Below are positions 1 to 27,329 of a stretch of 64,000 nucleotides of DNA, piece after piece (within the stretch, counting starts at the first letter, position 1; each line of letters starts with the position of its first letter). The stretch lies in contig QPGO01000078.1 in assembly GCA_008632985.1 (NCBI GenBank), positions 1 through 64,000 on the forward strand. Direction: 5' to 3'. The translations under genes and the position numbers were made by a program. Under the pieces are notes generated by a model that saw only the letters and a list, made by a program, of their open reading frames with translations, made no database searches and had not been told where the DNA came from. The stretch is from Psammoneis japonica (Eukaryota).

Positions 1-632
1 CTTCAAATCGAGTTTCAATAGCGCCTGCGGCAACGCCCCTCGCAGCACCATTTCCAATAATCCTGAAACACCGCTCCAATGGCTAGCTAACGCTCATTGA
101 CGACGGGTGAAGATTAGACTGGAGCCACAATGGTTTTAATACAAACCATAGAAAGAGGGATGCCAAAATACTCTAAGCTTTAAGGAGGGCTCTTCAATCT
201 GTCAAGAACGAACAGAAATTGCAACACAAGAGGTGAGTGACGAGTTCTACAAATGGAAAAAGTACCAAGGCATTTCTCATCCATTTTTTGCGTTTTTCAT
301 ACCTTTCTTTCACATATTCATTTATCATAGAGAATTGTAATGCGTGCTTTGTTGGTACAGCAGCAGCACAAGTGACGGCGGCAATGTCGACTGCCGGCTC
401 TTGTGGCTGTCATGGTCGATTTTTTTGTGTTGTGTCGGAGGGAAACGACTGACACGACGTAGATTTCTACGTAGAAATCATACCATGAGTACTTCAACAC
501 CACAATGTCCGTGTCAGTGCCTCGCACGAATTTACTTCAACATGCGAGTCACCCGGAGATCTGACACATCGGGTTGCGAAAATGGAGAAAGAATTGTGAG
601 AATTGCTCTCAAAACCACTTCCACATTATAGA

Positions 633-2951
633 TCAAGCTCGCTGCACTCGCAACCCCTTCCTCTCTCCCTTTCTTTCTCCCCTCTTCCTCCTTCTTTCTC
701 CTCTCCCCTCCCCCCCTCTCTTGGAGTCACTGACCCCCCCTAAACCCCGCATGGTTGCTGCAGGCCAGCACTGCTCCGACTTCGGCACTGGAGCATCCAA
801 TCCCTTCGAGGTTTCTTTGGCATTCAAAACTGCATCCTTTGTGTCGGTTGTAAATAGCGACAGTCCACTGTCTGGATCTAGATGCCCTCCAGCAGCGGGG
901 GCTCCATCAGAGGCAGCACACTTGTGTCGAGCAAACCAATCCTCGAGCAACGTGAGCCTTTTCTCCAGCGGGTGCCTCCAGAGACGAATGTGTTCCTGGC
1001 AGTGCTTCCACCTTGAAGAGTGCATGACATCGTGCATCTCCTCATCAGAATGCTTCTTGTTGTTTGGCGTGCCATCCTTCAAGGCTTGCATCACAGCTTG
1101 GCGGTCGGACCATTCGGCACATGATGCGGTTGCTTTGAGATCACTGACAGCTTGCCAACAATCAGCATGTTCTTTTCGGAGCGTTCTTGCAATTCGGTGC
1201 ATCCAATGAAAGAGCCCAAGGAGACAGATCATGTTCATTCCGAATGTCATCTTCCACAACTCCGACTCATTCGGCCAGGTGTCGCTGTGGTGGAGTTTTG
1301 GGCGTGCGTTCTTTCGCCTGGCAAACTGTTCTGCCGCGTGAGCAAAATCTTTTGCTTCCAATGTTGGGGTTGGGCAAGCGGTTCCCACCTGCCCCTTTTC
1401 GTTGCACATGGTGAACAGGCCTGCCACTCCGCCTGCTTTCTTTGAGCAGTTTTTGAGAATTTGAAAAGTGTGGTCGGATGCGACGCTCACGGCGGCTCCA
1501 ACCATCTGCAACAATCTCGTGCACCTGTCACACGAGGACGTGTCAAGAGCCGTCAATTTCGATTTGCCAGGTTCGTCATAAAGATCAAGAAGTGCTGAGG
1601 GTGATGGGCTGCACCCGCCCATCCAATCCTCGAAAGACACCCACTCTTTGCTTTTGTCGATGGCTCGGCAGCAGTGCTCTTTCTGGAGGTCCACGAAACA
1701 GGCGGCTCGCATTTGGTGCAGCATGTGCGAGAACTCACCCCCATTTGCATGCGTGACAACAAAGGACTCAAGGAGTCTTGCAGTTTCCTTGGTGAGATGC
1801 CACTTGTTGCTTACACTGGCATGCTCAGGCAATGTTGGATGTGCTGACTGTGGGCTTTTTGGCAGCTTGTGCAGCAGTCGACCGTCGTTGCCCTTGCATC
1901 GAATTTTGCATTTGTTGCATTCGCACCACATTGACACCGCCACATGCGTCTTCCCGCTGATGCAACACATTGGTGTCGCCCCACCATGTCGAGCAAAGTC
2001 CATGCGATCATGAATCATTTCCCCGTCACACTCTCCGTCAATGCAGGAGAGATAGATGTTAGGATGGTTCAGCTCCCAACAAACGATGCACACTGTCACA
2101 CCTTGCAGCTGATGGCAGCAACAATCAGGCGGTGAAGTGCAGTCATCCTTGGGAACTTGAAAAGACACTGCACCAGGAGGAAAAGCACCATCCTTGACCT
2201 CCAGAATCTCATTGAGCTTGGGGCTTTTTGCTGCAGCAACAGGACACTTGTTGCTGCCTTGTTCGAATCTCGGCTTGACAGAATCCAACAGACAACTGAT
2301 GAGAGCACTCACTGCAGCCGGGCACTTCGTCCTCTCCTCTGAGTTCTCACACTTTTTCACGCGTGCTCGAATCTCTCGTTTCAAAGTCTCAACCGAAAAT
2401 TTAGCATCAGTGGCCGACTTGTGGGCATTCTCGGCGCGCTCCATGGGGCCTGCAGCATCAGCCACCCCCGAATTCACCGGCTTGCATGTGTTGGCAACAC
2501 CTGGAGGAGGCAACACAGCTTGAGCTGCAGGTTTCTGTTTTCCAAAATGGTCTCGCATGGTTGACACTCCCTTTTCTGGAGCATCCAGAATCGTGTTGTT
2601 TGTTTCGTGAAGCTCTTTGTCACGTCGCTCTGCATCCATGGTGGCTTTGGTGACGTTCACTTGCAAGCACCTCTTTGAAAATTTGCATGTGGGATCATGG
2701 CCATGATGACATGCAGGACCTTTGTCACATCTCTTGCATGTCTTCGTTCTGTCGTCTACTCTTGGCACCTTACGCCCACTAAAATCGCTCTGATGCGTCC
2801 GCTTCTGGCGTGTGTGCGCTTGGCTTTTGCTCGCTTTGATGGAGCCTTTGCGTTTCTGGGATTGAACTCCCATGTTGCTAAAGAAAGGATGTAGCTGCCG
2901 CTCTGCAGCCACTTTTGTTGGAGCAGATTCTTCGGTTGCGTCCGTCATCAT
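633..2951 (-). pseudogene. Zisupton/KDZ-like (DUF6729-type) DDE transposase, TpA-hypermutated and C-terminally truncated
   Basis: 772-aa ORF with SDHTFQ...TMCNEKGQV...SDTWP...LGLFHWMHRI and a final SKRG, matching the remembered Zisupton-type motif order (DxTxK, NExGxI/V, YxD, xxFHxMxR, RGxSxxE). Only 2 Tyr in 772 aa, with many Cys/His. Homology ends in a purine-only run. Assignment is by motif recall. Confidence 0.7.
654..722. repeat. 69-nt pure pyrimidine (C/T) tract
   Basis: Only C and T from 654 to 722, at the point where the transposase is cut off. Confidence 0.95.
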
Positions 2952-3238
2952 CGAAGCACCAGCAGAGATTGTACTTTTCTCTCTCGTGGTTTTTTTTTTG
3001 TGAGAGAATTTTTCTCATCGCGTGAGAAGTCTGTGTTGTTGTGATTTTCCGTGGCGCGAAAGGAAGAGATTGTCGGTCTCCGCATCATTCTGATTCTTGT
3101 GTCTGCTTTTGGAGAGCTGTCTCAACCTCCTCGTCCCTAAGTGATTGCGTCAGATTTTCCAAAAAAATGTTAATTAATTGATCGGAAAGTCGAGGACTTT
3201 CCGAGAGTCTCCCTTAAGTAGAAATCCCAAATGCTGAA

Positions 3239-3250
3239 TTCTGATTGGCT
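3239..3250 (-). promoter_or_regulatory. AGCCAATCAGAA CCAAT box upstream of the transposase
   Basis: ttctgattggct on the + strand, about 290 nt upstream of the transposase ATG. The same 12-mer occurs at the ends of the 54.6-60.6 kb element. Confidence 0.45.
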
Positions 3251-3911
3251 CTCGTAGCGCCATTCCTAATCCTCCCTCGATGATGCTCGAATCCGAGGCA
3301 AACAAATGGCGCTCTAGGGCCACTGTATCTTGATGAGAATGCCATGAACACTCCCAACAATCAAAACCATGTTGTATTTCAATAACTTACACACGTTTCT
3401 ATCGAGACATCTGAGAAAAAATAAATGCTTAATTTCATCTCTGAGTCGAAAGAGAATGGCAAAAACATCATGCAAGAGCATTTCGACGAATTTTTCTGCT
3501 GCAGAATTGCTTTCAAAGCCTGGTAAGTCTCTTGCATGAGAAATCAATAAAAATCGATTGAATACTCAAAAGAATGATGCATGTTATGATTGTGATTGAT
3601 GTCGTTTACTGTATTGCATTCTTCGAAGAAGCCGCATCATGGTCTTTCGGGTTTTTTCGAGAAGGCCGCGGTTTCATTATTCTCGTTATTTCGATATCCG
3701 TATGAATACTTTATATTCAAAGCTTTCATCCGTTGCGCACGCAAGTCGAGCTCGAATTAGATCTCAACGGAAATCTAGAAATATAATGATATACATTCCG
3801 TATGTCAGGAATGTCTCCACGAAAGATCCAAGATCCAGGATCCGGAGGAGCCGAGGATCTGTCCATGTTTTCTTGCCACTTGTATCCATGCACTTGCTTG
3901 TCCCGACCCTG

Positions 3912-4760
3912 ATGATGCCACAGCCTTGTGTTTCTGCTGTAATTTCTCTCTTGTTGCTATCATGTTTAATTAAAGCCGTCCTTGCGTTTTCGTCAGCCTC
4001 GGGGTTTGTTTTGCACGTGGATGAGGCAACGACGCTCACAAGCGGCACAGCCATGTTGCCTCCCATGGTGTCCGTGCCATGCTCTGTTGGCGCAGGCATT
4101 ATTCACGAAATGGTCAAGCCTCCCAATGTGGATGACTTGTACGAGTGGTATGTTTCGACTAGAAAAGAACCGCACGCTGATCCGAGTTGGGGCGTGCTGT
4201 GGCCAACGGCGGTGAGCTTGGCTAATTTTTTAGTGGAAAACCCCGACCTTGTTCGAGACAAGGACGTGGTGGAACTCGGAGCTGGGTTGGGACTTTGTGG
4301 ACTCGTTGCGGCGGGGCTTGGGGCTTCTTCCGTTGTTTTAACGGATCGTGAACCCTTTGCGTTGCATTGCGCCTTGTCGACGGCTCAAGTGAACCATTTG
4401 ACGGGGGTGGAGGGTGCGATTGTGGATTGGTGCGACAAAACCAGCATGTTAGACTCTGCCGACGTAATTATTGCCAGTGACGTGTTGTATGATGGAGAAA
4501 CAATTGATGCGTTTGCTTCAACGTGTCGAAGAATCTGTAGAACAGGTGGTATGGTCTTGGTTACGGACCCGGTCAAGGAGCGATACGGCGGTGCACGAGC
4601 CAAGTTGCAGTCCAGCATGGGAGGCGCAACAATACCAGTAGAAACCACAGAATTGCCAATTTGTGCACAAAAGCACGACAGACAGCTTTATTCAGTGGAT
4701 GGAAAAGACCATGCCCGTCGAATGAAGGAGCCGACGGTCTTACTGCGCTGTAAGCTTTAG
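3912..4760 (+). CDS. Class I SAM-dependent lysine methyltransferase (METTL21/Methyltransf_16-like), probably plastid-targeted
   Basis: WGVLWPTAVSLA, VVELGAGLGLCGLVAA, VVLTD, DW and IIASDVLYD motifs. Signal peptide followed by VLA-FSS. Start at ATG 3912 (3888 possible). Confidence 0.85.
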   Translation: MMPQPCVSAVISLLLLSCLIKAVLAFSSASGFVLHVDEATTLTSGTAMLPPMVSVPCSVGAGIIHEMVKPPNVDDLYEWYVSTRKEPHADPSWGVLWPTAVSLANFLVENPDLVRDKDVVELGAGLGLCGLVAAGLGASSVVLTDREPFALHCALSTAQVNHLTGVEGAIVDWCDKTSMLDSADVIIASDVLYDGETIDAFASTCRRICRTGGMVLVTDPVKERYGGARAKLQSSMGGATIPVETTELPICAQKHDRQLYSVDGKDHARRMKEPTVLLRCKL

Positions 4761-4894
4761 AGATTTGAGCCAAAGTCACATCACGAAACCGAGACGTCCA
4801 TCTAGAATGTCATACACCGCAGTAGGATCTAGCGGATATCATCTACGGTTTGTGTACGCCGCATACTAACGTATGTTACTTGCCGACTATCTTC

Positions 4895-5401
4895 ATGGGT
4901 CATGTTGGATACAATGGCGGGATTGAAGTATCACTTTTATTCTTGCGGAATAGCATCATAAAAGGCGAGACACAAGAGCACGCTATTGTTGGCGCAATGG
5001 GCCTGATCTTTACTTCGTTTGGGAACACTGTGCTCTCACAACTCGTTGCTTGTGGAGGCGTCCCAAATATTCTGGTTGGCCATGATCAATACCCAGAGAA
5101 TGAAGTTATCGTTTCAAACAGATGTGGAATCATGGCAACCTTGTCCGTTTCGAATGGTGGGCATCTATCCGAAGGGCTTTTTGGGGTTGGATTTCGACAT
5201 CCATTTGTGGTATTCCTACTTTTCATCGGCAGTTTAGGTCACTGGCGAAAGCGTAAAGTAGAGAGTGGTTTTGTTTGTATCTTCTTTCTTTTGCGGTGTC
5301 TATCCAGTTGCTGTCTGAAACATGGACTAGCCATTAAGCATAGCGGGAGGAAGAAAGGATATGCGACAGTAACAATTTCATCCCCAAATTCATTCTCTTA
5401 G
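4895..5401 (+). pseudogene. Possible ARM-repeat fragment or degenerate ORF
   Basis: LVACGGVPNILVGHDQYPENEVIVSNRCGIMATLS resembles one armadillo repeat. The rest is unrecognisable. Confidence 0.3.
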
Positions 5402-5552
5402 CACTATCGTACGAAGTCTCGTCAGCCCTCACCGAGCCTGTTGAGAATTTCAAAAGTTCGAGGGAATTGCCCAAGGTATGACATGCTATCACAGAAGATT
5501 CACTACATGCAACGACACTACAAACACCGTCGCTCCTATCTTTCGCGAAAAG

Positions 5553-5984
5553 TTATTTTGTTACTCCACTCTTTGCCTCCTTGATTACTTCCTGTCGAAA
5601 CTTTGATGCTTCCATGGTATCAATCGAAAGCCTGTTATCCTTCAGGACATAATCGTAACCAAAGAAATTCAACACAAAACCAAGGACAAGAAAGGCCCAT
5701 GCTCCCGCCGTGACTGCTTGACCCAGACGCGAAACAATGCTTGTGGGACTATTCCCAGACGTCAACCACTGATCCACACTTGTATCGCCGTCAGTTTTGG
5801 GTTTTTCTTCCTCATTATTCTTTTTGTTGGCCCAGAGTACTTGAGCTGATTGTTCCACACGACGGCTGCTTGCGCGGCTTTGTTGTTGCACGACGAGCCG
5901 TGGCGCAAACGCCGACGAAGTGTCAAGCATGAGCACAACCCAAACAAGCGCAGCCATGCAGCAAAATACAAACCTTTGCATCAT
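5553..5984 (-). CDS. Small plastid-targeted membrane protein of unknown function
   Basis: MMQRFVFCC...TSSA-FAP bipartite signal, a transit peptide, and one TM helix (AWAFLVLGFVLNFFGY). Confidence 0.8.
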   Translation of the reverse strand: MMQRFVFCCMAALVWVVLMLDTSSAFAPRLVVQQQSRASSRRVEQSAQVLWANKKNNEEEKPKTDGDTSVDQWLTSGNSPTSIVSRLGQAVTAGAWAFLVLGFVLNFFGYDYVLKDNRLSIDTMEASKFRQEVIKEAKSGVTK

Positions 5985-6326
5985 TTCTTCTTGTTTCGTT
6001 ATGTGCTTTTGCTCTGGATGCGAACAGAAGTGTTTCTTTCCCTTGTTTTGCCTGTTTCCTTTCGGCTGTGACGTGGTCGGTGGTCGGTCGATTTTCGAAT
6101 GTTGCGTCGTCGTGTTGTCGGTCAGCGGCAATTTTTTCTACATACTGTAGGTACGTTCTCGCGCAAGTCGCGCTTTCTGATTGAGTCACGAGGTAAATCC
6201 CGTTTCCATGTTGTGTAGAAGAATTCTACGTGGTTTCTCGTGTATTAAAAACAACTTGGTATCTTCAGACCCTTGCCCGAGAGCCGACAGTGAGGCCTCT
6301 GTTTGGCTTGTTGCAACAGCGAAAAC

Positions 6327-7157
6327 ATGGCATCAACCGAACAGCCCTTGGAGGAGCGCTTACAGCACCTTCAACGTCTTAATGCAGATCGCTGGAATAC
6401 CTTGAAGGAATTGAATCGAGAATGGAATCGTCTAAACAGCTCGTTAGAACAGGAACCTGCCGTTTCTCGTTTCGAAAAGCGAGAGGCTGCGCTGCAGGCC
6501 GAGCAGGACGTCTTACGAGCAGACGGCACCCATGCAAACGAGGCACATACAAAAACGCAACATGAGTTGGAATCTGAGTTTGATGCGGAATTGATTGAGT
6601 GCTACGACAGTCTAAAAGAAACAAACGCGGTGTTGGATCTGGAATTGGAAATGAAATCACGAAAGCTAATCGAGATGAACGGGTTCCTAGAAGAACAAAA
6701 GAACGTGCAAGAGGCACTCGAGATTATGGTAAAGAAAAAGCCAAACGAAGAGGTGGATGAGGAGGAGGAGGATTCTTCGTCTCGGCTAGAACTCTTGCAG
6801 AATGAAAACAAAAGACTCCGGAGTGATTTACAGTATGTCTGCCGTTTTTGGGAAAGAGAAAAAGAGCGGGAACGACAAGAACTGCAAGACATGGACGAAA
6901 GTGACGATGATATGATTGTGGAACTGCACCCCAGACGTCACAAAAAGGGGGCGGACCATGGAGGCGGGTTCTGGAAGCTAGATCAACTGGTGCTCGAACT
7001 GACCAAGAGATTCATGCAATCTCCCACCGACCCTTACATTTCGGTAGACGGGTTTCCCATTGATCCAAGACACGTAGATCTCCTTCGGCAATGTCATGTA
7101 ATTGAGGAGACTGAAGATTATGGGACTAGAATATGTCTGACGGACTATACTCGGTGA
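6327..7157 (+). CDS. CENPK: CENP-K-like (Mcm22/Sim4) kinetochore protein
   Basis: Long coiled coil, then C-terminal LDQLVLELTKRFMQSPTDPYISVD...PRHVDLLRQCHVIEETEDYGTRICLTDY, resembling the CENP-K head (...P.DPYV....P..V.LL....I........RI.L..F). Length is 276 aa. Confidence 0.65.
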   Translation: MASTEQPLEERLQHLQRLNADRWNTLKELNREWNRLNSSLEQEPAVSRFEKREAALQAEQDVLRADGTHANEAHTKTQHELESEFDAELIECYDSLKETNAVLDLELEMKSRKLIEMNGFLEEQKNVQEALEIMVKKKPNEEVDEEEEDSSSRLELLQNENKRLRSDLQYVCRFWEREKERERQELQDMDESDDDMIVELHPRRHKKGADHGGGFWKLDQLVLELTKRFMQSPTDPYISVDGFPIDPRHVDLLRQCHVIEETEDYGTRICLTDYTR

Positions 7158-7425
7158 CAAAAAGATCGGCGCCACAACAGCAGCGTTGAAAAAGTTCATT
7201 TGAATAGCTACTATTCAAATCAAACACATTTCAATATTTTGTTTCCTCTCTCCTCTCACTTTGAACAGTCCGCCATACGTGTCTTTCGATACCCTACATA
7301 ATATTGAGTAGTCGAAGTGTAACGTCTTCCGTTTGATAGTCGACAGTCGGACAAGAACAACACCGTTCAATGTTGCAAACGAAAGATTGCAGTAGTCAAT
7401 CACTCTCTCTCTCTCCAAGCCAGCC

Positions 7426-7878
7426 TCACTCTTTTGCTTTAGGTTTTGCATGCTTTGATTCTTGAACATATTTTCCCACAAAGTGCGCAAAAACGGGATG
7501 CAGTGGAATCTCAATCCACATCCATCTCGGAACGGGTATTTGTACATTGTTAAGGACAGCACCTATCAAGGTGAAAAGACCAATCAAATGCGACAAAATA
7601 ATGGGACGGGTTCCAATCACTGCCGCAACATAGCCACCAATTATGGATTGCCCAAAGTGTGCACAAAATACCGCAAAAAATGCTGGCAAGGGTAAGTTTG
7701 CAATGTAGTCGCCAAACGCCTCGGTGTCGTCAAACGAAACGCCATCGGGCAGCGGATACAGGTAGTTTACATTGAGCATAACGATGCTCATGTTGATGAC
7801 AGAGCCAAGAACGAGGCCGACAATGAGACCTGCAATGTTGCGGCGGACAGCATGAGTGGTGTCGTGGGTCGGCGTCAT
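7426..7878 (-). CDS. Four-TM hypothetical membrane protein of bacterial-like family
   Basis: Intronless 150-aa ORF with RNIAGLIVGLVLGSVINM...YPLPDGV...AHFGQSIIGGYVAA...P.W, a pattern recalled from small bacterial membrane proteins. Confidence 0.7.
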   Translation of the reverse strand: MTPTHDTTHAVRRNIAGLIVGLVLGSVINMSIVMLNVNYLYPLPDGVSFDDTEAFGDYIANLPLPAFFAVFCAHFGQSIIGGYVAAVIGTRPIILSHLIGLFTLIGAVLNNVQIPVPRWMWIEIPLHPVFAHFVGKYVQESKHAKPKAKE

Positions 7879-8003
7879 GTCAACAACAATGACCAAAGCA
7901 AGATCGATCCAAACAACGCCATAGCGAAGTGCTGGGTACGCATCGAGTAACTTCTGGATAACGTCGACTGACGCACCGCGCTGTGGCGCATGCGCAGTGG
8001 ATT

Positions 8004-8069
8004 TCATCGTGGGACCCCACAAATACGGAGGGACACGTAACCCGGAAATGTAGCAATTTTGATTTTTTG
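8004..8069 (+). repeat. Left TIR (TpA retained)
   Basis: tcatcgtgggaccccacaaatacggagggacacgtaacccggaaatgtagcaattttgattttttg. Confidence 0.92.
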
Positions 8070-8161
8070 CTCATGACGCGTGAGACAACAAAATAAACAA
8101 AGATGCCGTTGCGTTTGACACTCTCATTCTAGCCGCTGAAACACTCCTTCCGCAGTATATC

Positions 8162-9433
8162 ATGGCACCGACGTCTCTCAAGCGTAGTACGAACAGTCAA
8201 AAGGCAGAGGCTCCAAAACGACGCCGTTCTGCTTCCAACGAGCCTGCTGACAGTTCGCACGCCGATGCTGTTGCTCAGGCAGGCACGCGACTTGGGAAGG
8301 AGCTTGCCGATGCCAACCAGGCGGAAACCATGGTTCAACTGAGACGTAGTAGCCGTGCGCGAAGAATGACTGATGCTGGGGCTCAATGCCAAATGGCAAA
8401 CAGGCAGAGACGGGAGCGGAATCGACAAACGCATGATGAGGAGAATGTGACTGCCGAACAACCCCCCCGCGAGTCGGAAGAAGAAGGGGCAGTCGAGCCT
8501 CCACCCACAGCGGAAGGAGAGATAGACGATGAAGTGGAGGTGGAAGAGGAAGAAGGTGCTCCTCCAGCTGAGGAGGAAGAAGCGACTTCACCAGCAGCAT
8601 CTGCGGAAGAGGAAGGAAAGGAAGAAGAAGGTGCTCCTCCAGCTGAGGAGGAAGAAGCGACGTCAGCAGCAGCTTCTGCAGAAGAGGAAGGAAAGGAAGA
8701 AGAAGGCGCCGCAACACGCAATCCCTTTGAGCATCCCGAAGACTGTGCACCTAGAAATGAATCAAACATTGGTCGGCATGATGCGCAGGAGCTCAAAAGG
8801 AAGAAGAAAGGCACGAACAACATGACTGGAGCCAAGAAAAGATGAAACCTGACGGATCTTCCACGAAGTGCACGAGCTTCCTTCGACCACAACATGAGAA
8901 CGAAATTTGGCCGTATGACAAAGAATGCACGCGGTGTGCTTAAGTGCTGTGCACTCGATCCTGAAAGTGAGTTGTTCGAAATCAGCCCAAAAGTCAGGGT
9001 GACTCTTGCGATCGAGACTGATGTGAAGCATTTCAAATCAAACAAAGAAGCAGAAAGTGGTTGTCTCACAGAATGAGAAAAAGTGGACAAACTCAAAAGG
9101 GAGAGGCCGTTGCTAATTCTCGTATCCAACAGCAGGGAGGATGTGAGGAGCACCTTCACTGCAGTTGAGTCACACCCAAATGAAGCCAAGCAGTTGCACA
9201 AGGAAAAGAAAGAGGCCGGTGGGACAGCTCGGTTTTCTGACTTGCAGACTGCTGAAGTGCATGAGCTGCATGGCATGGGCAATGAAGATGAGGCAGAGGA
9301 ATTCATGAAAATGACAGTGGATCCGGGGAAAGAGGGTGAATGGACTGGATCCAACACTGGTCCTCGTCAAGCACTTGAAAAGCTGATGAGGCGACGGCAA
9401 TCAAACCCAGTGCAGCATTGCAACAATGCATGA
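8162..9433 (+). pseudogene. Accessory ORF of the TIR element (acidic, low-complexity N-terminus), interrupted by TGA stops
   Basis: ORFs 8162-8845, 8894-9076 and 9083-9433 share one frame and are separated only by TGA codons. Confidence 0.55.
8549..8710 (+). repeat. 75-bp coding tandem repeat (about 2.2 copies; EEGAPPAEEEEATSxAASAEEEGKE)
   Basis: Units start at 8549, 8624 and 8699. Confidence 0.9.
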
Positions 9434-9479
9434 GTCGCAACAATGTATGATGTGAATGTGCCTCTCTAATTGTTCTAGT

Positions 9480-12400
9480 CTAAGATGGTTGTGTGGATCG
9501 CTTCTTTCTTCGTGGGCTGGAGAGGCTGACGATGGAAGAATCGATGCTACCCAGAGTTGAGGCTGACACTTGACCAAGCACTTGGTCCTGCAACTGAGAC
9601 AAGTTCTCGTGCTGTGAGGCGGCAAAGTTGCGGGAACAATCCACAGTGCACTGCTGTCGGCCTCCAGACCTTGACTCTGTTGTCCCATGACAGAACGGCA
9701 TCCTCGTCTGCTTTTTCAGACGAGCCACATCAACCCCGTCCGATGCATGTTCCTTGTCAAACAATTCTTCCTTTCTCTTTTTTCGAGCATCGTAAAAACC
9801 AGGAACCTTGTTGAGATGCTCTCGACCCTTTGTCACCATGGTGAGATGCCAGTCTCGAGCAGCAGCAGTTTCCATGCCCTCAATGGCTACGTCTGCGGGG
9901 AAGGCCCGTTCGAATTTCTGCTTCTGTCGCCGTCCAGGATTCATTTGTTTTATCCTGTCTCTTGACACCTTGCATTCTGCCGAGAGAATTTTTTTAGTGT
10001 GCGCACCTTTTATTTTCTTCATCTCTTTCTTGCTGTCCGACATGTGCTTTTTGACAAAATTGTCACGAGCATCTTCAAGCTCTTCGAGGGTCGCTCGAGG
10101 TGGCTTTGGAAGTGCCTTTTGATTGACGGGGTTGGGGTTGCTCTTGTTGAAGGGATCAGCTTTGTGACAATCAAGGGCAGCCATTTCTCCCAGTTCAGCG
10201 AGGAAGCAGTTCATGGGATCAACTCGGTGCTTCCCTTTTGGCGTCCACATCGCCTGAGGTTCCTCCTTTCCAAGAATTTCCGGTGGGCTATCATGGCGCA
10301 CTCCTAGGCAGTTCACATCCCACAACTGACAGACCATGGTGCAAAACGTACGACCAAGATTTAGAGGCCTGTCACTCTTCGGAATGGAACTCAACAAGTG
10401 TCGCTTCGAGAGACGCCCTGGTTCTTCCTTCAGATTCGTGTTGCGGTTCACATTTCTTGTGGCAATGATTTTTTTCACATTCATCTGCATTCTGATGATA
10501 GAAAGTAACTTCTCAAAGTTAGATGTACATTGTAGCAGCATGGTGCATCAACTTTGTTGACGCACCTGTCAATGCACTCCTCTTTCAGTTTCGAGTTTCC
10601 CAAGTCTTGCGTGCCGCATCCGATTGAGGTGTCCTTCTGTTGGAATTCTTGGTGTCGATCGGCGCACACAACAGCTCCTTGTTCTGTCTTCTTGAACACC
10701 GCAAACTTCTTGAACATGGCTTTGTCTTTTTCAGACATGGTGCACTCTCGCTTTGCGTCTTCCTCGGCGATCCTCATGTGTCCAGTGGCATTTGCAATCG
10801 AAAAAATGTTGGCGGCAACAAACATGTCTCCGTCTCCATTGCCATCCCCTGCATCAGATTCAGCAACTTGGTGCATGATGCACATGAGGGCAGTGTTGAC
10901 ATCACACTCGTTTGTCGACTCTTCCGGGCATGCCGCCATTCACTTCCGGACGCAATCTTGGAGCTCAACAGGAGAGAACTGGATTTTGCCGTCCCTGTCT
11001 AGCTTTGACCCATTCACCCTCATCCATGCCATGACACCAACACAAACATGGGCGTTGAAACACTCAAACAGCTCGTCGTCGTGTTGGTTTGGGTTTGGAG
11101 GATCGCACAGCCACATGACCTTTTTCAAAGTCGGGCGCCATGCCAATGCCAAGTCCTGAAGTCGGATCTTTCCGATGTTCCTCATGCCTCTCCTTTCGGC
11201 GGACTTTTTACCTCAATGGAAACCTCCACAACAAACCAGAAGCATGTCACACACACCGGGGTTTTCAGTCTGCATGGACAACATTTGTGCTCCTGGCTGT
11301 CCATCCACACAGAAACACAAGTGTCCCCCTGCCATTGATGGTGCGTCGGGATTGCCATCCTTCAAAGCACACCAATCCTCGCCTGCGGTGTTCATCCAGT
11401 GTCATGCAGCACATTTTGCTCTCTCTTCCACTCCTTCCTTTTTTTTTGCTGGATTCTCTGGGATGCACGTGTCGGGGAAGGCATTGTTCAAATCGCACTT
11501 GTCCTCACCCTGGACATGAAGGATCCTCGTGCGCAGCTGAGGGGCATTGCAATCAATGAGACGATGCGTGCCACATTCTCCATGACCTAAATTCACATCA
11601 TCAACAACGCATCGTTTCCCTGTCTCAATGATGGTCTTCATTGCCGGAAAGTCCCCAAACAAGTCCATGAAGTTTCGAACCAATTTACCTTTCAGATTGT
11701 GCATGATCGTGCAGCGAGAATCTTGGGGCAAGAGATCTTCCGGTGTGAGTGTCCGTCTTGTTGTTTCCCATCTGTTTTGTTCATGAGAAAGTCCGGCCGT
11801 AAGCTCCTTTGCTTCTTCCTCCTTGTTCACTGTCACCTGCTGGGTTGTGAAATGGTGCATGGCAGTGCACCCGTCTGTGACAAGCCTTTTGTCAAGATTG
11901 TCCAAACTGATCCCCAACTGATCACCTTTCTGAATGTCGAGTTGGCGCACAAATTCATCATCTGCCTCAGCAATGTCCTTGCATCGAACGGAACTTCTTG
12001 AGAGGGAGAGACCCCAATTGTGGAAGCAAAAACTCTTGGTGCTTGACGATGACTTGGAAAGGACCTCTGCTGAAGTCCTTTGGAAAGGCGTTGGTTCATT
12101 GCTCGCAACATTTCTGATGAGCTCTGCGCAGACGAATGCCTTGTTGCGAATTCTCTTTGTCACATCTGTCACTTTTCCACAGTCTTGCTCTCTTGAGCCT
12201 GTCATCAGGTGCTCCATAAAAAGATTCAAGAGGCTCTTGTCATTGTTGGCAAACCCTTGTAGCTCATCTATAGAGCCGTTCCAATGGAGAGCCGGATCTC
12301 GGCATTCCGCTTCAGGCTGCACCAAGAAAGCATGAAGTGCCAAAGCAAGTGAACAAAAATCGGTCTTCACATCTGCAGAGAAACATCCCAACTCAGCTGC

Positions 12401-12877
12401 CCGCAAATTTGCAAAAAACGACCATCCGCGTGCACCAGTGGCAACTCCATCCCCCCCTGTCGCAACTGCAAAAACCACTTCGTTCTTTTGTTCACGCGAA
12501 GGAAGACACAAGAAATCATCAAGAGCTTCAAAGCCATCAATGTCAAAATGTGAGCATGAAGACTCTTGCTGTGTGACTCTAGTGCCAGACTCTCTGCTTC
12601 GTGGCGTAACTGCTCTTGACCCATCGGATTCTCTGGGAGCATTTTCTCGAGCTAGCGTGTCTCGGCAAGCAACGCACTTGTGGCAGTCAGCACGGCTGTC
12701 ACAGCTGGGACAAATGGGCCCTTCACAAAGTCGCTGTGCATGCATTTCTCCAAAGCAGTGCGGGTACAAATGGCACCCACACGGACGCATGGTGAAGCAC
12801 GTCTTGCTCTTCAGTGCTTCTTGACACGCCGTATTTCCACAGCTTTCTGGGGAGGCAGCCTTCCTTTTTGATGACAT
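9480..12877 (-). pseudogene. Large transposase-like protein with N-terminal RING-like finger (DUF6589-like DNxD...DG.P...GGFH...D..QE), fragmented
   Basis: CGCHLYPHC...CPSC, LGISLDNLD, CVDGQP, VCCGGFH and ADRHQEFQQKD occur in order across ORF fragments. Superfamily is uncertain. Confidence 0.55.
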
Positions 12878-13018
12878 GACAATCTTCCACAGTGCCAAAC
12901 AGTCTTCTTGTGGAGTGTGACAAGTGATTGGAGCAGAGGATTGAGCTGCACAACGACTGTGCACTCTCCATCGGACGCAACAGTGTTTGTGGTCATGCAT
13001 CTTTCATCGAGAAAAAAT

Positions 13019-13084
13019 CAAAAAATCAAAATTGCTGCATTTCCAGGTTGCGTGTCCCTCCGCATTTGTGGGGTCCCACTGTGA
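13019..13084 (-). repeat. Right TIR (TpA-mutated)
   Basis: Reverse complement is tcacagtgggaccccacaaatgcggagggacacgcaacctggaaatgcagcaattttgattttttg, 60/66 identical to the left TIR. Confidence 0.92.
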
Positions 13085-14673
13085 GATTGGTGGGTAGACT
13101 GCGTGCCGGTGACCCTTGCCACCTTTCGAGCGGTGAGCATCTTTGTTTTGGTCCAATGCAGCCTGAACCCCTGAAAAAGGGGTGGACAATTTCGGACCGC
13201 CTCGTGCAACACAAGGTTGCTCTTGGTGGCAGTTGTGAGGTTCTTTGGGCACGGGGACAATCCTGCATCAGGGAATGGTCGGACAAATTCATGGAACCCA
13301 CCCCACTGTCTCTTCTCAATGGCCACAAAGAGAGCAATGTCAATCATTGAATCGAGCTGCAGTGAAGAGTTGTCACTGTTGTCAATGACTGTGACAGGCA
13401 ATGAGGACAATCCCTCCTGGATGTCATCACATGCATCAAATGCACCGTGTTCTTCAGCTGCAGGGTCTTCTTCTCAACAATGACACCGGATTGCACCCCT
13501 CCCATCTGACACTTCAGATCCAATTGTCCAATCTTGAAGATGTGTTCCTGTCCTTTCAACCACCCCTGAGCAAGTTTCTTCCCTGCCTTTGTCTGGCTCA
13601 ATGCCTCATGTTTGCTGTTGAGGCATGCCTTGCACTGGGGGTTGTCTTCTGCAGCGCTGGCATTGCTGCGCCGTCTGCCACTGGCTTCTCTGGCAATGAC
13701 CCAACTTCGTCTGGGAGCACTCGGCAATTTGACAGTTGCTGATGGGGTTTGAGTTGCCAGGAGTTGGTGTGGTCATTTGCACAATGCTGTCTGGCAGACC
13801 ATGGTCTGGCTGCTGCATTGTTGATCACAGTTCTCTTGCTTTGATCAACAGCAAAAACATGATGGATTGCTGGTCTCCTTCATTTGTGCTGTGCTGTGCA
13901 GTGCAGAAAGAAAACTGCATCCACTGAAATGAATGACCAAGCCATGGCCCATTGACATTTTGGTCCCCGGCAACAGAGTTGGTGATGGTCATGAGAAGGC
14001 ATCTTTGTCGCCCAAACTTGACTTTGTGCGACACTGACTGTGTGGTGTCAATGTCAGCCCAGGTGGACCAAGACTCAAGAGTGGTCAGTCGCTGCTTTTT
14101 TTGCTCAAATTTGGTGGAACAGCTCTTGATTTGTATGATTTTTCCTGAATTTCACAGTCCTTCACAATGGTGAAAACAACAAGCCACAAAGTCTGTGATG
14201 GAGGTGGTCTGATCACAAACTCTTGTTTGTTTGTGTTCCTTTTGCATCAAAGATTACACACACATCAAAAGTTTGCAGATGCCCCACTGCATTTTCAAGA
14301 AAGATCAATGATTGCATCATCATCATGCTTTGATTGTGGTGCACAATGTTCTCATTTCCTTGTGCAATCCGGTGTGAATGCAAGCAATTTTTGCACTCAA
14401 AAATGAACACTGCAAATGATCTCATTCAAATGCCATGACAATTTTAGGATGAATGCGGCAATGACCCCCTTGATGGTTTTTACATGGGGCCAGGGTCAAC
14501 TTGGAATTAAGGTGGTGCAGGTGCAAAGGTGGGCCAGATTCTGCGTGTGCAGAACTTAGCACATTTTCTACACAAATTGCCAAAGTCACCTTGCCAACTT
14601 GAGCCCTTTCCCAGACGATGGAAACTTGAACATTTCACACAACGAAGTGTCCAGGCTGCTCAGTTTCACTCCC

Positions 14674-14843
14674 CTCAACTTGTTCATTGAGAGAAACTGC
14701 AAGTTTTCATGCATTTTTGAAGATGTGCACTGAGTCCACTGGCAATCAGAAAGGCACCAAAATTGGGAAGTTCAAGTTTCATGGAGCTGTGGCAAATGAT
14801 GAATGCCTGAAAACTTGCAGTTTCTCTCAACAAACAAGTCAAG
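14674..14843. mobile_element. 170-bp MITE-like element with 42-bp inverted arms
   Basis: 14674-14715 and the reverse complement of 14802-14843 differ only by two CA/TG swaps and one transversion. Confidence 0.7.
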
Positions 14844-14859
14844 CCATCAACATGTGGAG

Positions 14860-15830
14860 GTCTCTTTTTGCACAAGCTTGCATTTTTTTAAAACTGGATG
14901 CTTTGCACAAAATGCACGCACTCGTTGCCAAAATAAAAATTTCAGTGACAGGCCCAACTTCCAACTTTGTCCATTCACAACAAGACACCACAGAGTGCAC
15001 AGACAATGGTCATGACCATGCATGATCTTGGACTTGTTGAGTGTGGACATGTCCACAGCCAGTCAAACACCAATTGTTGGCATTTCCTCCTGGAAAGTTG
15101 TGGCTCACCTCCCACAAGCAGTGTGATTTTGGAGAAAAACAGTGGCACTTTGAACCTGACAACTGCACCAAATCCAACAACTGGCATTTGAAGGTTGAGA
15201 AGTGCAGTTCACACACAGGTCTGACAGCCCTGATGGGGGCTGGACAAACTTGCAACAAGTGTTTTGGGGTTCTCAGAGGTGTCTCCGCAAAATGACAAGG
15301 GCAGTGCACGAGAAAATTCAAAATCACAAGCTTTTTGAGAAAACATCTCTGCACATCAATCCTGCCTTGAGGATGGATTGTTCATTTGCGGTTGATTTTT
15401 TATTTGGAGCTTGCACTTTTCCACAAAAACCCGGATTCCTTGCACCAATTGCACGCGTTCACCAAAACAACATTTCAGCAACAGGTCAAACTTTGTCTGT
15501 TTGCAAGACAACACAGAATGCACATGTGATGGTTGCGACCATGCATGATGTGCAGCTTGGCAACTGGGTGTGCAGACATGTCCACAGCTGGTCAAATGCC
15601 AGTTGCTCCTGGCATTTCATGGAAAGTTGTGGCTTGTCCACCACAAGCAGCCAGCCCGATTTTGGCAGAAAATGGTGGTTTGTCACGCACAACAACCAAG
15701 GCAAATGCAACAATTGGCATTTGAAGGTTGACATGGTGTGCAGTTCACACAGAGGTCTGACAGCCCTGATGGGGGCTGGACACACTCATGTGTTTGGGGG
15801 TGCTCAGAGGCGTCACAAAATGATGGTTCT
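14860..15830 (+). repeat. Diverged tandem duplication, unit about 530 bp
   Basis: Shared blocks in both halves, e.g. gaccatgcatgat, gacatgtccacagc, ggaaagttgtggct, ggcatttgaaggttga and ggtctgacagccctgatgggggctggaca. Confidence 0.8.
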
Positions 15831-16177
15831 GTTTTTGCCTTGGACTTAACTGCAGACACCGCATGGCTTGCATTTGTGAACACACAACAAAAGAGTGAGT
15901 GCAACGATCTGTCAATGCACCAGTTTTCTGAACACAATCCACCATGCTTCTGTTCTTTTCATGTTTTACACTGTTGATCACAATGCTGTTCACTGGATTG
16001 ACTGGTGTTGTCATTGTTTGACAAAAGCTGTCATAAAAATGGGGCGCAAATGCTTCAAGGCAAATGCATGAGAGGGGGCATGGGAATTGCCAATGCACCA
16101 TTTTCATTCATGCATTTAGCGTGCACATGTGATGAAGCATCATTTGTGCTTTTTCCCCAGGAACTCACGCTTCCCGT

Positions 16178-16464
16178 GGAACAACATGGCAAAAGGTGGC
16201 AATCCCGGGGAATTTTGGGGATTCCCACGGTGAAACCAAACTGAGCATTAAAAAAAACAGTGCATGACAATGACCCATCCTTCAATTGCTTTCTGCTCTG
16301 AACTTGCAGCTGCACATTGTGGAGCAACATGGCAAAAGGTGGCAATCCTGGGGAATTTTGGGGATTCCCATGGTGAAACCAAACTTGGCTTTAAAAAAAA
16401 ACAGTGCGTGACAATGATCCATCCTTCAATTGCTTTCTGCTCTAAACTTGCAGCTGCACATTGT
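16178..16464 (+). repeat. 143-bp tandem duplication (2 copies)
   Basis: Copies start at 16178 and 16321. Differences include three CG versus TG/CA and one TA versus TG. Confidence 0.9.
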
Positions 16465-16844
16465 CAGTGTGCTTTCATTGACCACTCAGTGGTCTGGTTG
16501 GATGGAAGCTTTGTGCATTTGTCCCATCTGTCCTGTTCATCTCCTGAAGATGTGCAGATGGTCACCTGAAGACAGACGCACTGTTGCACCTGCGTGTCTT
16601 GATTTGTCACACATGCCGGTGGATCACATGGCAATGCTGGCAGCTTCGGCCATTGCGTGGTCAATGATGTGCACACGGGTTGATCTTTTTTCAAGAGTTT
16701 TTGCCCACACCATCTAAACCAGTGCAGCAAGAGGCACTGACTGTGACAACATGGAACACAACTGTCTGGGTTTCTTCTGGCCACTTCAACACTTGAGCCA
16801 GGCATCCTGATCCTGCCTGCATTGCTGTCCCTTTGCTCTGCCAA

Positions 16845-18100
16845 ATGTCAAACTTCAACACCCCAGATGAAGAGAAACAGCAACACCAACATGAGCCTTT
16901 GGATTTGTCTGCATTGCTGACAGCTTTGGAAGCTGGAGATGAAGATGTGATTTCTGTTTGGCAACAACTGGTTGAATTTTTGACTCTTGGAATGGTGCAC
17001 AAGCCAGTCCTTCTGGCAGGAATGTTGGCTTTCTCTGTGGAATTGACAAGAGTCACTTCCAGATCATCACATTGCAAAATGATGGACCTGCTGGACAGTG
17101 AGTGGATGACATTTTCGGAAGCCAACTTTTCCATGGTGTCACAAAATTGGGAGGCTTTCATTGGCCAGAGAATGGCTCTTGATGCCAATGTTGCAACTTT
17201 CTTCAACACAACCAGACAAGAAGCCCTTGACTTGTCCACAAGCATTTCCAAAAGCCCAAATTGAATGCTGGTAATGGCTTGACACCTGTGCAATTGTGCT
17301 TGTTTGACAAGATGGCAAACTTTGCAGACAAGGTGCATTCATGTCCCAAAAATGGTGAAATTAAAAATGCTGTGCTTGGATTTACTGGCGTGCAGCTGCT
17401 GCTGTGCTTGGCATGCCATCTGAGACTCAACAAGACAGGCTTGCTTTCTGCAAAGCAGTCTGTGGGAGTGTCAGAGAAGGAAATTCATCCGCAACACCGG
17501 CCTCTGGGACAAATTGGCCCCCTTCAATTTGCTGTCATTTTTGAGAAAGAGGAGTGGTTTGACAAGAAACCTGGTGTTGTTGTGTTGCCAGTGATGGAGG
17601 CTGATCAAGCCTGGAACTGGAATGGTGGCCATGCAAGATTGTCATCATGTGTGAGGATGTTGCCAGAAAAGCCAGCGCTTGAGCCATTGCAAGCAGGATT
17701 GGTCTAACGTTGATGAGCCGAACCCAATTCAAGATGCAAGTGCTGGCAACATCAGAAAATCAGCCTCACTTTTGTGCCACGTAACCAAAGCATCAGCCTT
17801 TTTCTTGGAACACAAAAACAGGCCTGATGGTGGAGGGGGTGCTGTGCTTTGGAGAAAGTTCCATGTTGAACTTGAAATGACTTGACTCACCTCAGCTGTG
17901 GTGATGCATCTCCTCCCAGAGGACAACCTTTGAGGCAGGATCTTGGTGGTGATCCCCAGAGCAGAGTGTCCAGAAGGAAAGATTGTGGTGATCAAGGTGA
18001 AGACATCATTGCAGTGCACCCAGACCCGTTGCTGCTTGCTTCCAAGTCATCTGTTGACTGGACTTGATGCTTCCATTTCCCGATGATGGCAGAAGCCAAG
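16845..18100 (+). pseudogene. Degenerate copy of a diatom hypothetical multigene-family protein
   Basis: WFDKKPGVVVLPVM...WNGG and HPDPLLLASKSSVDW resemble a recalled diatom family. Frameshifted and mutated. Confidence 0.3.
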
Positions 18101-18888
18101 CCATCTGAAATTCCAGCAACAGGAGACTGCCTTGATGACACAATTTTCCTTCCAATGAAGCATCCAAAGCATCAGTTTTCTTGAGCTTGTGTTGGATTGA
18201 ATCCATTGCATGGCAATGCCTCTTGCCACCACTGCAGAAACTGTTCAGTTGCAGCAGCTGATTGTTTCTGCTCTCACGGCTGCTGCCATTGTCCCTTGCA
18301 TGCAGGTGCTCCATGTGGACTCAAAAAGGCTGTTTTTGACTGACTCCTTCTCCAATGACTCACTCAAGAAAAAACTCAAATGACGACAAAGGATGGCCTC
18401 TTGTTGTTGATTGCAAGCAATTGGATGATTTTTGTGACAGTTTGATCAGTTGTGAATGCTTGACTGGTCCCCAAGATTGTGCACTTGAAGGTTTTGCAAA
18501 GATTGAAGAGGCACTTGAGAAAACTGCCAGGAACTTTTGTGCTTGAATGTCACCAAAATGCCACACTTTTGTGTGCAATTCATTTGTTTTTGCCTCTCCA
18601 TCTTCCTCCCTTGTGGTTGCACCCATCTGTTCTGATGACTTGGCATCCCACGTTGTGTGGCTGGAGCAGGTTGCAAGCAGATGAGACATTGTGTCATGAA
18701 AAGACAAAATGTCCAACAACATCGATTGTGCCACTGCAGCCCAGCACAGACTTGCTGTCAATGACAATGGTGGAACACAAGAATGTGGGAAAGCATGTGG
18801 CATCAAGAAGAAGATTGAAGTCCAGATGGTCTGTCAATTGCCACAAGACACTTCAGAGAGTGGAAGGCTGAATGCTTGCACACCGATG

Positions 18889-21800: not shown

Positions 21801-22900
21801 GCAATGCAGCACAGAGGATGACAATCGCAGCAGGCAAACAACAAGATGTGCCAAAGATGCAAATTGTGAGAAGATCTCACAGTTGACCAGAGATGACAAT
21901 TTCACCCAACGGTCATGCATGTCACTCCAGCTGCTGTTGCCAGAAGACTCAATGGACATTTCTTCTGGAAGCAGAGGTCAATGACCAGAAGCATCATCTG
22001 TGAATCAGACTTGCCATTTGACCCATGACTCACTGTGTTCAGGGCCCACCTGACAATGTCAAGAGCTTTGAGTGCTTCATGGATGCTGATTTCTGTCAAG
22101 TGGAGTGGAGCCCCTCTGCACTGGTCATCAAAATTGCAGACCCAGTTGGCCCTCAGCAACAGTGAGAGCAAATGCTGTCTGGCCCTGTTGGCTGCAACTT
22201 GGCACATGAAGGCATCTGTGCACCTGTTGAAAGAGATCAACAAGGTGCATTGTCCAGCAACAATCATGCCAAGCGTCTGCTTCAATTTTTTTGAAAAAAC
22301 TTGGCTGCACTCAAAATTGCAAAGGTGCCAAAGATGAGGCCAAGAACATGTCATGTCAACAACATCTGCCACCATTTTCACTCTGAGGATGCCAGCGGAC
22401 ATTTGCCAATCAAGGTCATTGGCATCAAGCTCCAGCACACTGACTTCTTGACCAAAATGCCAGACCCATCAATGTTTGTGCACCAACTTGACCTTTCACA
22501 TGAGGAAGTGTGACATTGTCTGTGCACTCAAGCATCAACATGCCTCAAGCATGAAAACCCAACAAAAAACCACCATCAACAAATGACGAGCCAATCACAG
22601 ATCACACAACAATGACAAGAATGAGGCATCTGGTTCAAATCAAGAATGGAGCATGCTTCCATTCTTCTTTTGTGCAATCAAGAACTTCTTGTTGTTGACA
22701 AGCCTTTGCACTGTGTTCATCTGCATTGGCTTTGGCACAAATGCAAGGCACTTCTTGTTTTCATGCTCTTCTGGTTGAATGTTGGCTGGCACAGTTCTGA
22801 TTCTCACAATTTAGAAATTGAAGAATCTGATCACTGCTTGGTTGCCTTTGCTGTTTTATGGCTCCATGGTGCAAACTGCCACAAACCCTGAACCAAGCAT
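18889..22900 (+). mobile_element. Ty1/copia LTR retrotransposon remnant A (RT + RNase H), internally deleted
   Basis: LTR-like direct repeats start at 18889 and 22509 (tgtgacat...gcatcaacatgcctcaagc...gccaatcacagat). A purine tract gaggaag precedes 22509. RT: QPQLIDS.LKDLG...GKANFLEKS..PEIA. RH: DADF, GAPLHWSSKLQTQLALS, PKMRPRT.H, DFLTK. Right end is approximate. Confidence 0.8.
20398..22032 (-). mobile_element. Ty1/copia remnant B nested in reverse orientation inside A
   Basis: ~250-bp direct repeats (about 20424-20672 and 21783-22032) flank RT (DEGKVGDFLGVKI...MVGMLMCLASNSCPDIA..AHQVA.F) and the RH end. A purine tract gagaggg abuts the downstream LTR. Confidence 0.8.
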
Positions 22901-22919
22901 TTGACTGCCCATGCTGCCC

Positions 22920-23335
22920 ATGATGTGTCATCCCAAACCACACATGACCAAGTCTTCCACATGTGCAGTGCATGTGAACATGCATTGCAAACAAATTCTG
23001 CAATGGAGTGCTCCATGTGTTGCAAGCTAACTCCACAACAGACTTCTCTGCAACTGTTCCATGCCAGCATCCCAAATTGTGCATGACCAAGTCTTCTGCA
23101 TGCACAGAGTGTGTGGAGATGCACTGCAAACTGATTCTGCAATGGCCCACTCCATGTGCATTGCAGCCAATTCTGCAACAGACCACTCTGCAACAGGCTG
23201 AGATGGAATTGAAACTTCCAGGTGCAGGTGCAGAGTCATTCTGTGCTGACATCCCAAATGATGCATGACCAAGTCTTTCACATGTGCAGATCATGTGGAC
23301 AGCATGTGTTGCAAGCCAACTCTGCAATGAGCTGC
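22920..23335 (+). repeat. Degenerate tandem repeat (three catgaccaagtctt-anchored units)
   Basis: Motif at about 22944, 23082 and 23264, each followed by similar ttgca...ctgcaatg sequence. Confidence 0.7.
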
Positions 23336-26900: not shown

Positions 26901-27329
26901 CTCTGACTTGGCAGCCATTTCAGAGGAGAACAGCAGGCAGGAGTGGCCATTGCCAGAAGGTTGGTGGTGCCAAGAACCCACCATGTGACCAGAGAATGTC
27001 CTCTTGGTGCTCAGTCATGATGCTCACCCCACTTTCACCTGTCACCTATCACATGTGACAAGCCCAGTTCTCATTGTCCCTCAGCAGCTTGCCAATGATT
27101 GCAGTGAACTCAAGTTCACCAGTGGCTTTTCTTGAGTGATTTGGGGTGCAGTGGTCTTTTGCATGCATTGGTTGTTGTCCAGGCAGTGTTTGGATTAGGA
27201 ACATGTGGGATTCTCTCCATGAAAGGCTCACAATCTTTGAAGCAGTGAAAGATTGTCTGTTTTGTTCTTTGACATGATTTTGTTGCTGGCTGCATTGCTG
27301 TTCACTTGCTTTGTCAGAGCTGTGAACAC

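Follow-up and report, generated by a model that had tools for sequence, protein, structure and literature searches.

The question that this locus raises is whether two dinucleotides, TpA and CpG, were lost from it by two separate processes and, if so, whether the order of the losses could be used to date insertions. The window, i.e. the whole stretch that we analyzed, comprises the first 64,000 nucleotides (64 kb) of contig QPGO01000078.1 of Psammoneis japonica. The subjects of the analysis are six blocks in it, named A to F from left to right, and the relic genes and elements that lie in them (Table 1). We found that TpA was lost by mutation of TA to TG or CA on both strands, and that the processes removing TpA and CpG are separable, which is well supported. 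Loss of TpA before CpG, and the use of the pair for dating insertions, is plausible but unproven. The two-clock interpretation as a whole is partly supported.

Loss of TpA and CpG in six blocks

The G+C content of the window was 48% and the observed to expected ratio (o/e) of TpA was 0.29, with the depletion gathered in blocks. The block limits were set by eye from TpA counts per 200 nt, before the o/e values were computed. Four host stretches served for comparison (TpA o/e 0.51-0.61, CpG o/e 0.98-1.04).

An earlier sequence-only reading had claimed that elements at 0.6-3, 8-13 and 55-59 kb had lost TpA almost completely, had kept abundant CpG and held long open reading frames (ORFs), and that the regions at 13-30, 47-52 and 60.7-61.9 kb were poor in both dinucleotides. 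The near-total loss of TpA in the former, our blocks A, B and E, was borne out (o/e 0.09-0.14, approximately 75-85% under the host level), as was the poverty of the latter, C, D and F, in both (TpA o/e 0.00-0.05, CpG o/e 0.13-0.21). CpG was largely kept in A, B and E, yet at about 0.7 of expectation it lay under the host value of about 1.0. The long ORFs were found, but they are relics and not intact genes.

That the two losses are separable, as the same reading had held, was seen in A, B and E, where most TpA was gone while CpG, CGN codons for Arg (56-66% of Arg codons, 67-71% in host ORFs) and conserved Arg residues were mostly kept. Further, the losses were nested. TpA o/e was below 0.2 in 32 of the 64 1-kb segments, and CpG o/e was below 0.5 in 23 of these 32 versus none of the remaining 32 (Fisher p = 4e-10), so that CpG loss without TpA loss occurred in no segment of the 64. 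This nesting fits an order in which TpA went first. Used as a clock, TpA is close to a two-state signal in the window, because every block is already at least 75% depleted.

We observed that the block edges were sharp to approximately 200 nt and that the adjoining host genes had normal TpA. The longest run without TA was 2198 nt (50204-52402, inside block D), and its chance at host TA density is about 8e-37. The blocks retained 145 TpA in all, at densities of 5-8.5 per kb (A, B and E) and 0-3.3 per kb (C, D and F). The depletion in block E weakened toward the 3' end, with residual TpA per kb climbing through 3, 6, 8 and 10 from 55 to 58.8 kb. Among the 1-kb segments of block C, CpG o/e ranged from 0.33 to 0.02.

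The lost dinucleotides were balanced by TG and CA. The o/e of CA and TG was 1.11-1.22 in the host stretches, 1.30-1.72 in A, B and E and 1.66-1.91 in C, D and F. Relative to host and per kb, the excess of TG+CA divided by the summed deficit of TA and CG was 1.06 for A, 0.72 for B, 1.00 for C, 1.11 for D, 0.89 for E and 0.90 for F; in block C, both terms were 85.4 per kb. In C, D and F the TG+CA excess was 76-91 per kb, the TA deficit 35-38 per kb and the CG deficit 46-51 per kb. The surplus beyond the TA deficit is therefore close to the CG deficit, and CpG loss is balanced by TpG plus CpA, as expected for decay of the 5-methylcytosine (5mC) type. TGCA and CATG were 2-3 fold enriched in the blocks and GpC was raised, as expected from conversion of neighbouring TA or CG pairs.

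The coding signal was split in the same way. The longest ORFs in A, B and E exceeded those of all 200 dinucleotide-preserving shuffles. Those in C, D and F were at the chance level, being reached by 91, 48 and 138 of 200 shuffles, respectively. Three-base periodicity rose up to 3-11 in A, B and E and was mostly 0.5-2 in C and D.

Table 1. Blocks, elements and relic genes of the window, with o/e values of TpA and CpG for the blocks
Feature	Position	Strand	TpA o/e	CpG o/e	Description
Block A	880-3000		0.09	0.69	TpA-depleted, CpG-retaining part of a multi-copy repeat, 1-3335 (by depth)
Relic ORF, 772 aa	633-2951	-			DUF6729-like, probably a Mutator-type transposase gene (by homologs P0001/P0002 and atlas clusters)
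Element B, 5.1 kb	8001-13087	-			69-nt inverted repeats at 8001-8069 and 13019-13087; TpA-depleted from about 8200 to 13087
Block B	8200-13000		0.14	0.67	
Relic gene of element B	10736-12874	-			Zinc-finger-like N-terminus; no family name
Block C	13000-30500		0.05	0.13	Feature limits 13090-30500 (17.4 kb); without TpA and CpG; mosaic of repeat families
Block D	47200-52400		0.02	0.21	Without TpA and CpG; (GC)7(CA)48 microsatellite at about 50508-50616
Relic gene of element E, protein of about 1500 aa	54935-59327	+			DUF6729 plus 3'-5' exonuclease; three reading frames
Block E	55000-58800		0.13	0.70	TpA-depleted, CpG-retaining; depletion weaker toward the 3' end
Block F	60800-61750		0.00 (0 TpA in 951 nt)	0.21	Short stretch without TpA, CpG-poor

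Direction of the change and the relic genes

A change of TAY to TGY turns a Tyr codon into Cys, and a change of TAY to CAY turns it into His. We compared the relic ORFs with their relatives at conserved columns. The relatives of ORF 633-2951 are P0001 (E 4e-111, 41% identity) and P0002 (E 5e-78); at the eight columns where both of them have Tyr, the ORF kept none (3 His, 2 Cys, 3 other). In element E none of nine conserved Tyr columns was kept (5 Cys, 3 His, 1 Val), while other conserved residues mostly were (W 9/9, F 11/13, L 38/41, D 19/21, R 20/23). The relic ORFs have 1-3 Tyr codons left, among them 2 in 773 codons of ORF 633-2951 and 1 in 533 codons of the 532-aa ORF of element B, as compared with 16/482, 34/1751 and 36/936 in host ORFs. 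The inverted repeats of element B, identical at 62 of 69 positions, gave a similar picture: all three TpA of the left arm were changed in the right arm (TG, CA, CA), one left-arm CpG was TG in the right arm, and three further mismatches were unrelated. The conserved Tyr columns, together with TA opposite TG or CA in the inverted repeats, give the direction of the change as TA to TG or CA. Since such a process creates no TAA or TAG and removes those present, and since the conserved Tyr residues are all gone, the length of the frames in A, B and E cannot be taken as a sign of function.

Both Cys and His outcomes were present at the Tyr columns, i.e. both strands were hit. TG and CA counts were 205 and 201 in block A and 2008 and 1997 in block C, and there were no strand runs of TG or CA (runs test, z from -1.7 to +2.6).

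The few TpA that survive in C, D and F were not a random sample. The TAA/TTA type made up 58 of these 66 survivors. RTAY (ATAT, ATAC/GTAT, GTAC) was found in 2 of 66 as compared with 296 of 970 host TpA (31%), and YTAR in 37 of 66 as compared with 160 of 970. The contexts of the survivors differed from those of host TpA (chi-square 126, p = 8e-23) and also from those expected if TpA had been made anew out of local TG/CA contexts (chi-square 64, p = 3e-10). This bias suggests a four-base preference of the mutator.

We also observed that the depleted domains did not always fill the repeats in which they lie. The depth values and the copy differences given here come from contigs of one public sample (3 runs, one study) at 80% likeness, for positions 1-20000 of the window; no public RNA run with this DNA was found. 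Summed contig depth over 1-3335 was 960-2020 against approximately 56 in unique DNA, and positions 1-600 of this same high-depth stretch had normal TpA. Positions 8001-8200 of element B (depth 100-480) were likewise multi-copy with normal TpA. Relative to the genes, normal TpA was found at the 3' ends (1-880, 8001-8200 and perhaps 59200-60352), and the depth marked 1-667 and 8005-8671 as multi-copy. The domain hit by the mutation does not fill the repeat and seems to be tied to the 5' end; this holds for three of three relic genes and is a weak pattern.

Rather than a live gene, ORF 633-2951 is a relic present in many copies, and it has stayed open in part because TAA and TAG are not produced by the change. 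Pfam gave no match for it. In its relative P0002, DUF6729 (PF20499) scored 15.4 bits, under the gathering cut-off of 27 bits. The nearest atlas clusters (score 0.92-0.93) carried DUF6729 in 11-78% of their members; there were also atlas leads to MULE and Transposase_mut, weaker than DUF6729. A profile comparison of this family with that of element E gave a probability of 48%. Judged by its relatives and the atlas clusters, ORF 633-2951 is probably the relic of a DUF6729-like, probably Mutator-type, transposase gene, although by the bit-score cut-off it falls short of formal DUF6729 assignment.

The relic gene of element B had a sole strong match among 1.84 billion representatives, P0014 (758 aa, E 2e-52), and tblastn placed residues 11-751 of P0014 onto 12874-10736. 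No convincing target-site duplication was found at the ends of the element. It also holds a 75-nt tandem duplication (8549-8706, 2.1 copies, 95% match), which reads Glu/Ala-rich in the + strand.

The gene of element E contains two frame changes, near 55.6 and 56.7 kb, with tblastn placing the homologs in three frames. The N-terminal parts of the homologs align to 54935-56700 and the C-terminal parts to 56700-59327. The 881-aa ORF at 56685-59330 had 11 homologs (E from 7e-233 to 3e-135), seven with PF01612 and PF20499 and three with PF01612 alone; in P0003 the two domains scored 49.9 and 43.2 bits. The ORF in the window itself reached 21.3 bits for PF01612, under the cut-off of 23.6. On the strength of its end-to-end alignment with the two-domain relatives, we assign the gene at 54935-59327 to the family of DUF6729 plus 3'-5' exonuclease (PF01612). 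The family occurs widely in metagenome contigs from the sea and from freshwater (105 confirmed relatives); a scan of IMG/VR viral contigs with the family gave no relative, and a literature search on the name DUF6729 found no paper. We compared the dinucleotides of element E with those of 80 of the 105 environmental relatives. Their TpA o/e was 0.22-0.96 (median 0.60) and their CpG o/e 0.41-1.40, so that none was below 0.2 for TpA; the element E value of 0.13 lay below all of them, and its CpG value of 0.70 was inside the range. A 35-nt inverted pair (54733-54767 and 60318-60352, 80% complementary) may mark the ends of element E, which would then be 5.6 kb long, and may also be due to chance.

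Blocks C, D and F gave no match, either by Pfam on their ORFs or by tblastn of 15 fetched proteins. No transposase, reverse transcriptase (RT) or integrase domain was found by Pfam in any block ORF, at first among 12 ORFs and then among 89, the latter being the longer ones of 161 stop-to-stop frames of at least 90 aa. Rfam gave no match over the window. Block C had a depth of 76-2750, measured to 20 kb. In block D a slightly CpG-richer islet at 50.4-51.0 kb partly reflects the (GC)n(CA)n microsatellite. The islet was considered as a younger insertion nested in D and this was rejected, as part of its CpG is the (GC)n run and no boundaries were found.

The differences between copies were mostly transitions (A>G 301, T>C 336, C>T 334, G>A 332), each type of transversion being found at 34-57 places. 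Among 40 of the 1708 difference rows, 22 fell in blocks: 8 were TA versus TG/CA, 7 were CG versus TG/CA, 2 rows made up one TG/CA double mismatch, and 5 were other. Internal repeats of block C, aligned over 1833 positions, contained 46 TG/CA double mismatches, 19 of CG versus TG/CA, 9 of TA versus TG/CA, 73 other transitions and 93 transversions. This spectrum indicates that each copy decayed independently.

Between the blocks, six ORFs of 264-1750 aa lie on the + strand at 33083-46842 with gaps of 5-243 nt. Their domains are beta-helix, EGF/teneurin, TIG, He_PIG, fn3 and DUF7507, and together they probably make up a single very large gene, or an array of genes, for surface proteins. The atlas clusters nearest to the ORF at 33083-35890 were bacterial beta-helix proteins. 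A 96-nt repeat is present in 10 copies at 44764-45721. A 400-nt dip in TpA (42401-42800, 1 and 1 per 200 nt) lies inside an otherwise normal host ORF.

Proposed mechanism and its rivals

A process of this kind has been described in the alga Bigelowiella natans. In a mutation accumulation experiment, 231 of 302 nuclear single-nucleotide mutations fell in integrated giant-virus and virophage regions, and among the 231 there were 230 changes of A>G or T>C, without exception at TpA (bioRxiv 10.64898/2026.01.13.699255, Mettrop et al.). According to the same preprint, the rate is approximately 6e-7 per site per generation, about 1000 times the background, and the process is episodic, with part of the lines affected; the genome has 124 clusters that are depleted in TpA and enriched in CpA+TpG, with DDE and RT domains enriched; and an ADAT2-like adenine deaminase is proposed (10.64898/2026.01.13.699255).

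The reading that we favor, and hold to be rather probable, is a saturated TpA-directed hypermutation of dead mobile-element DNA with a slower, separate CpG decay layered on top. A domain-targeted process acting on DNA would rewrite such elements from TpA to TpG or CpA, i.e. by A:T to G:C transitions on either strand. It would be the process that was followed in real time in B. natans and for which a DNA-acting adenine deaminase has been put forward. Such a process would be self-limiting and quickly saturated, since its products are not substrates. It would leave long open frames with Tyr changed to Cys or His, because TAA and TAG are removed and neither is created. The second process, from CpG to TpG or CpA, would be confined to the same silenced domains, and deamination of methylated cytosine is its most likely cause. 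A, B and E would then represent a first stage, with TpA gone, CpG mostly left and the gene recognisable. C, D and F would represent a second and older one, in which TpA, CpG and the coding signal are gone. If the rates of B. natans are borrowed, and only if the organism is alike, the half-life would be about 6e4 generations for TpA and 2e7-1e9 for CpG; the estimate for G/C>A/T in hypermutable viral DNA of B. natans rests on one mutation (10.64898/2026.01.13.699255).

Several observations weigh against this reading. A two-exponential fit gave unlike rate ratios for the two classes of blocks unless a floor for TpA was assumed. The host ORFs in the window are long and uninterrupted, while B. natans has approximately 8 introns per gene (PMC13746701), so that borrowing its rates may be wrong. 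Copies of B differed from the window copy by about 12% (110/888 and 109/858 letters) and a copy of C by about 11% (163/1477), and internal repeats of C differed by 2-7% transversions; since the divergence of B and C is similar, it is not evident that the families retaining CpG are young. No gene was identified in C, D and F, which hence may never have been coding. Finally, the high-copy stretches 1-600 and 8001-8200 keep their TpA, so repeat status is not sufficient for targeting.

The similar divergence bears on an alternative that we regard as unlikely, although deserving attention, namely that the blocks differ in state and not in age. All domains would have been TpA-hypermutated, only C, D and F would be CpG-methylated heterochromatin, and CpG would report the silencing pathway. 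CpG o/e was indeed roughly bimodal by block (0.67-0.70 versus 0.13-0.21), CpG-rich and CpG-poor families were similarly diverged in the few copies listed, and hypermutation in B. natans is on only in some lines and regions, which points to regulated targeting (10.64898/2026.01.13.699255). The gradient of CpG o/e within block C resembles decay, however. The copy of A in the window already lacks CpG that other copies retain in 4 of 11 listed differences, and ORFs, periodicity and the last residual TpA are lost along with CpG. A single deaminase, fast on TpA and slow on CpG in the same domains, would need no methylation; CpG loss was found solely inside TpA-depleted DNA, both losses yield TG or CA with a stoichiometry that closes, and ADAT2-type enzymes are reported to deaminate A and C (cited in 10.64898/2026.01.13.699255). 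We nevertheless give this little credence, as the 230 of 231 hypermutations at TpA reported for B. natans would make any activity on C at least approximately 100 times weaker.

That the pattern is an artefact of base-calling at modified bases, or that the DNA is natively poor in TpA, we consider very improbable. The sole public sample is possibly the source of the assembly, so the confirmation by its contigs is not independent. Against these two readings, a contig at single-copy depth matched block C with 4 differences in 718 nt. The Tyr to Cys/His columns and the asymmetry of TA versus TG/CA between the arms of element B show change after insertion, and TpA was ordinary in the 80 relatives of element E. 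Copies elsewhere in the same data still have TA at some sites.

Hypermutation followed by CpG decay, as favored above, can be extended into a joint reading which we offer as tentative and on the doubtful side. The hypermutation would be anchored on the transcription unit of the element and not triggered by repeats. It would follow a four-base rule, RTAY first and the TAA/TTA type and YTAR last, and would act outside B. natans. The TG/CA products would undergo further decay through loss of CpG and could give rise to (CA)n. ACn repeats are reported to be unusually common in B. natans and other Rhizaria (PMC13746701); that TG/CA end products seed such microsatellites is speculation. If the joint reading is true, an adenine-directed "reverse RIP" would be a wider eukaryotic genome defence.

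Comparison with known systems

The substrates of ADAR and APOBEC enzymes, which edit retroelements and viruses, are RNA or single-stranded replication intermediates, and the traces that they leave are runs with a strand bias. What they share with the process seen here is transitions of the deaminase type that depend on the neighbouring base; for ADAR, a U preceding the edited A is preferred (noted in 10.64898/2026.01.13.699255). The difference is that here a DNA element bounded by terminal inverted repeats (TIRs) was hit, with TG equal to CA and the two interspersed. Hits on both strands without runs, in a TIR-bounded DNA element, argue against RNA editing inherited via reverse transcription. 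ADAR-like editing of a retroelement was rejected, since the strands are equal, element B has TIRs and Pfam found no RT domain among the block ORFs. The decay of CpG at 5mC in silenced repeats of vertebrates and plants resembles the second loss in its change of CpG to TpG or CpA in repeats, in its graded deficit and in its use as a proxy of age. In the window there is the difference that CpG decay was seen solely in domains already struck by the TpA process.

In repeat-induced point mutation (RIP), found in ascomycete fungi, C is turned into T at CpA, which generates TpA and numerous stop codons. The likeness lies in a process that is limited to transitions, specific for a dinucleotide, active on both strands and inactivating for mobile DNA, with a diagnostic dinucleotide index. 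The outcome is the opposite, as here TpA is destroyed, TAA and TAG are removed, and multi-copy stretches at the ends of the elements escape. RIP was therefore rejected as the cause: TpA is nearly absent and CpA/TpG are in excess. Besides the B. natans preprint, our literature searches for other reports of a defence from TpA to TpG/CpA gave only papers on RIP.

The core phenomenon, hypermutation at TpA only, is already described in the 2026 preprint on B. natans (10.64898/2026.01.13.699255). As there, we found TpA depletion with CpA+TpG enrichment in clusters and, on both strands, TpA sites changed by A>G or T>C. The identifiable targets were mobile (A and E with DUF6729-type genes, B bounded by TIRs, and A, B and C multi-copy) and the host genes were spared. 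The exclusive change of TpA to TpG or CpA on both strands and the sharp CpA+TpG-rich clusters in foreign or mobile DNA are thus common to both, and the affected genes are mostly unannotated (DDE and RT domains being enriched in B. natans).

Mutation that erases a dinucleotide from invading DNA has so far come from one preprint and one alga, and the window shows its end state in transposons: open genes nearly without Tyr codons, sharp domain edges and a flank bias of the survivors. An index made of TpA o/e, CpG o/e and the change of Tyr to Cys or His could find such domains in any genome, and the two-stage scale, once calibrated, could date insertions. For annotators, long ORFs in TpA-erased DNA are no proof of function.

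The two cases differ in their material, since the preprint deals with a giant-virus insert that still bears TpA, and the window holds saturated transposon relics, with DUF6729-type genes and a TIR-bounded element. The main text of the preprint has no occurrence of the words "CpG", "context" or "flank" (10.64898/2026.01.13.699255). What is added here, as compared with that main text, is the relation to CpG loss, the Tyr to Cys/His signature, the flank bias of the survivors and the escape of the element ends, together with the absence of strand runs.

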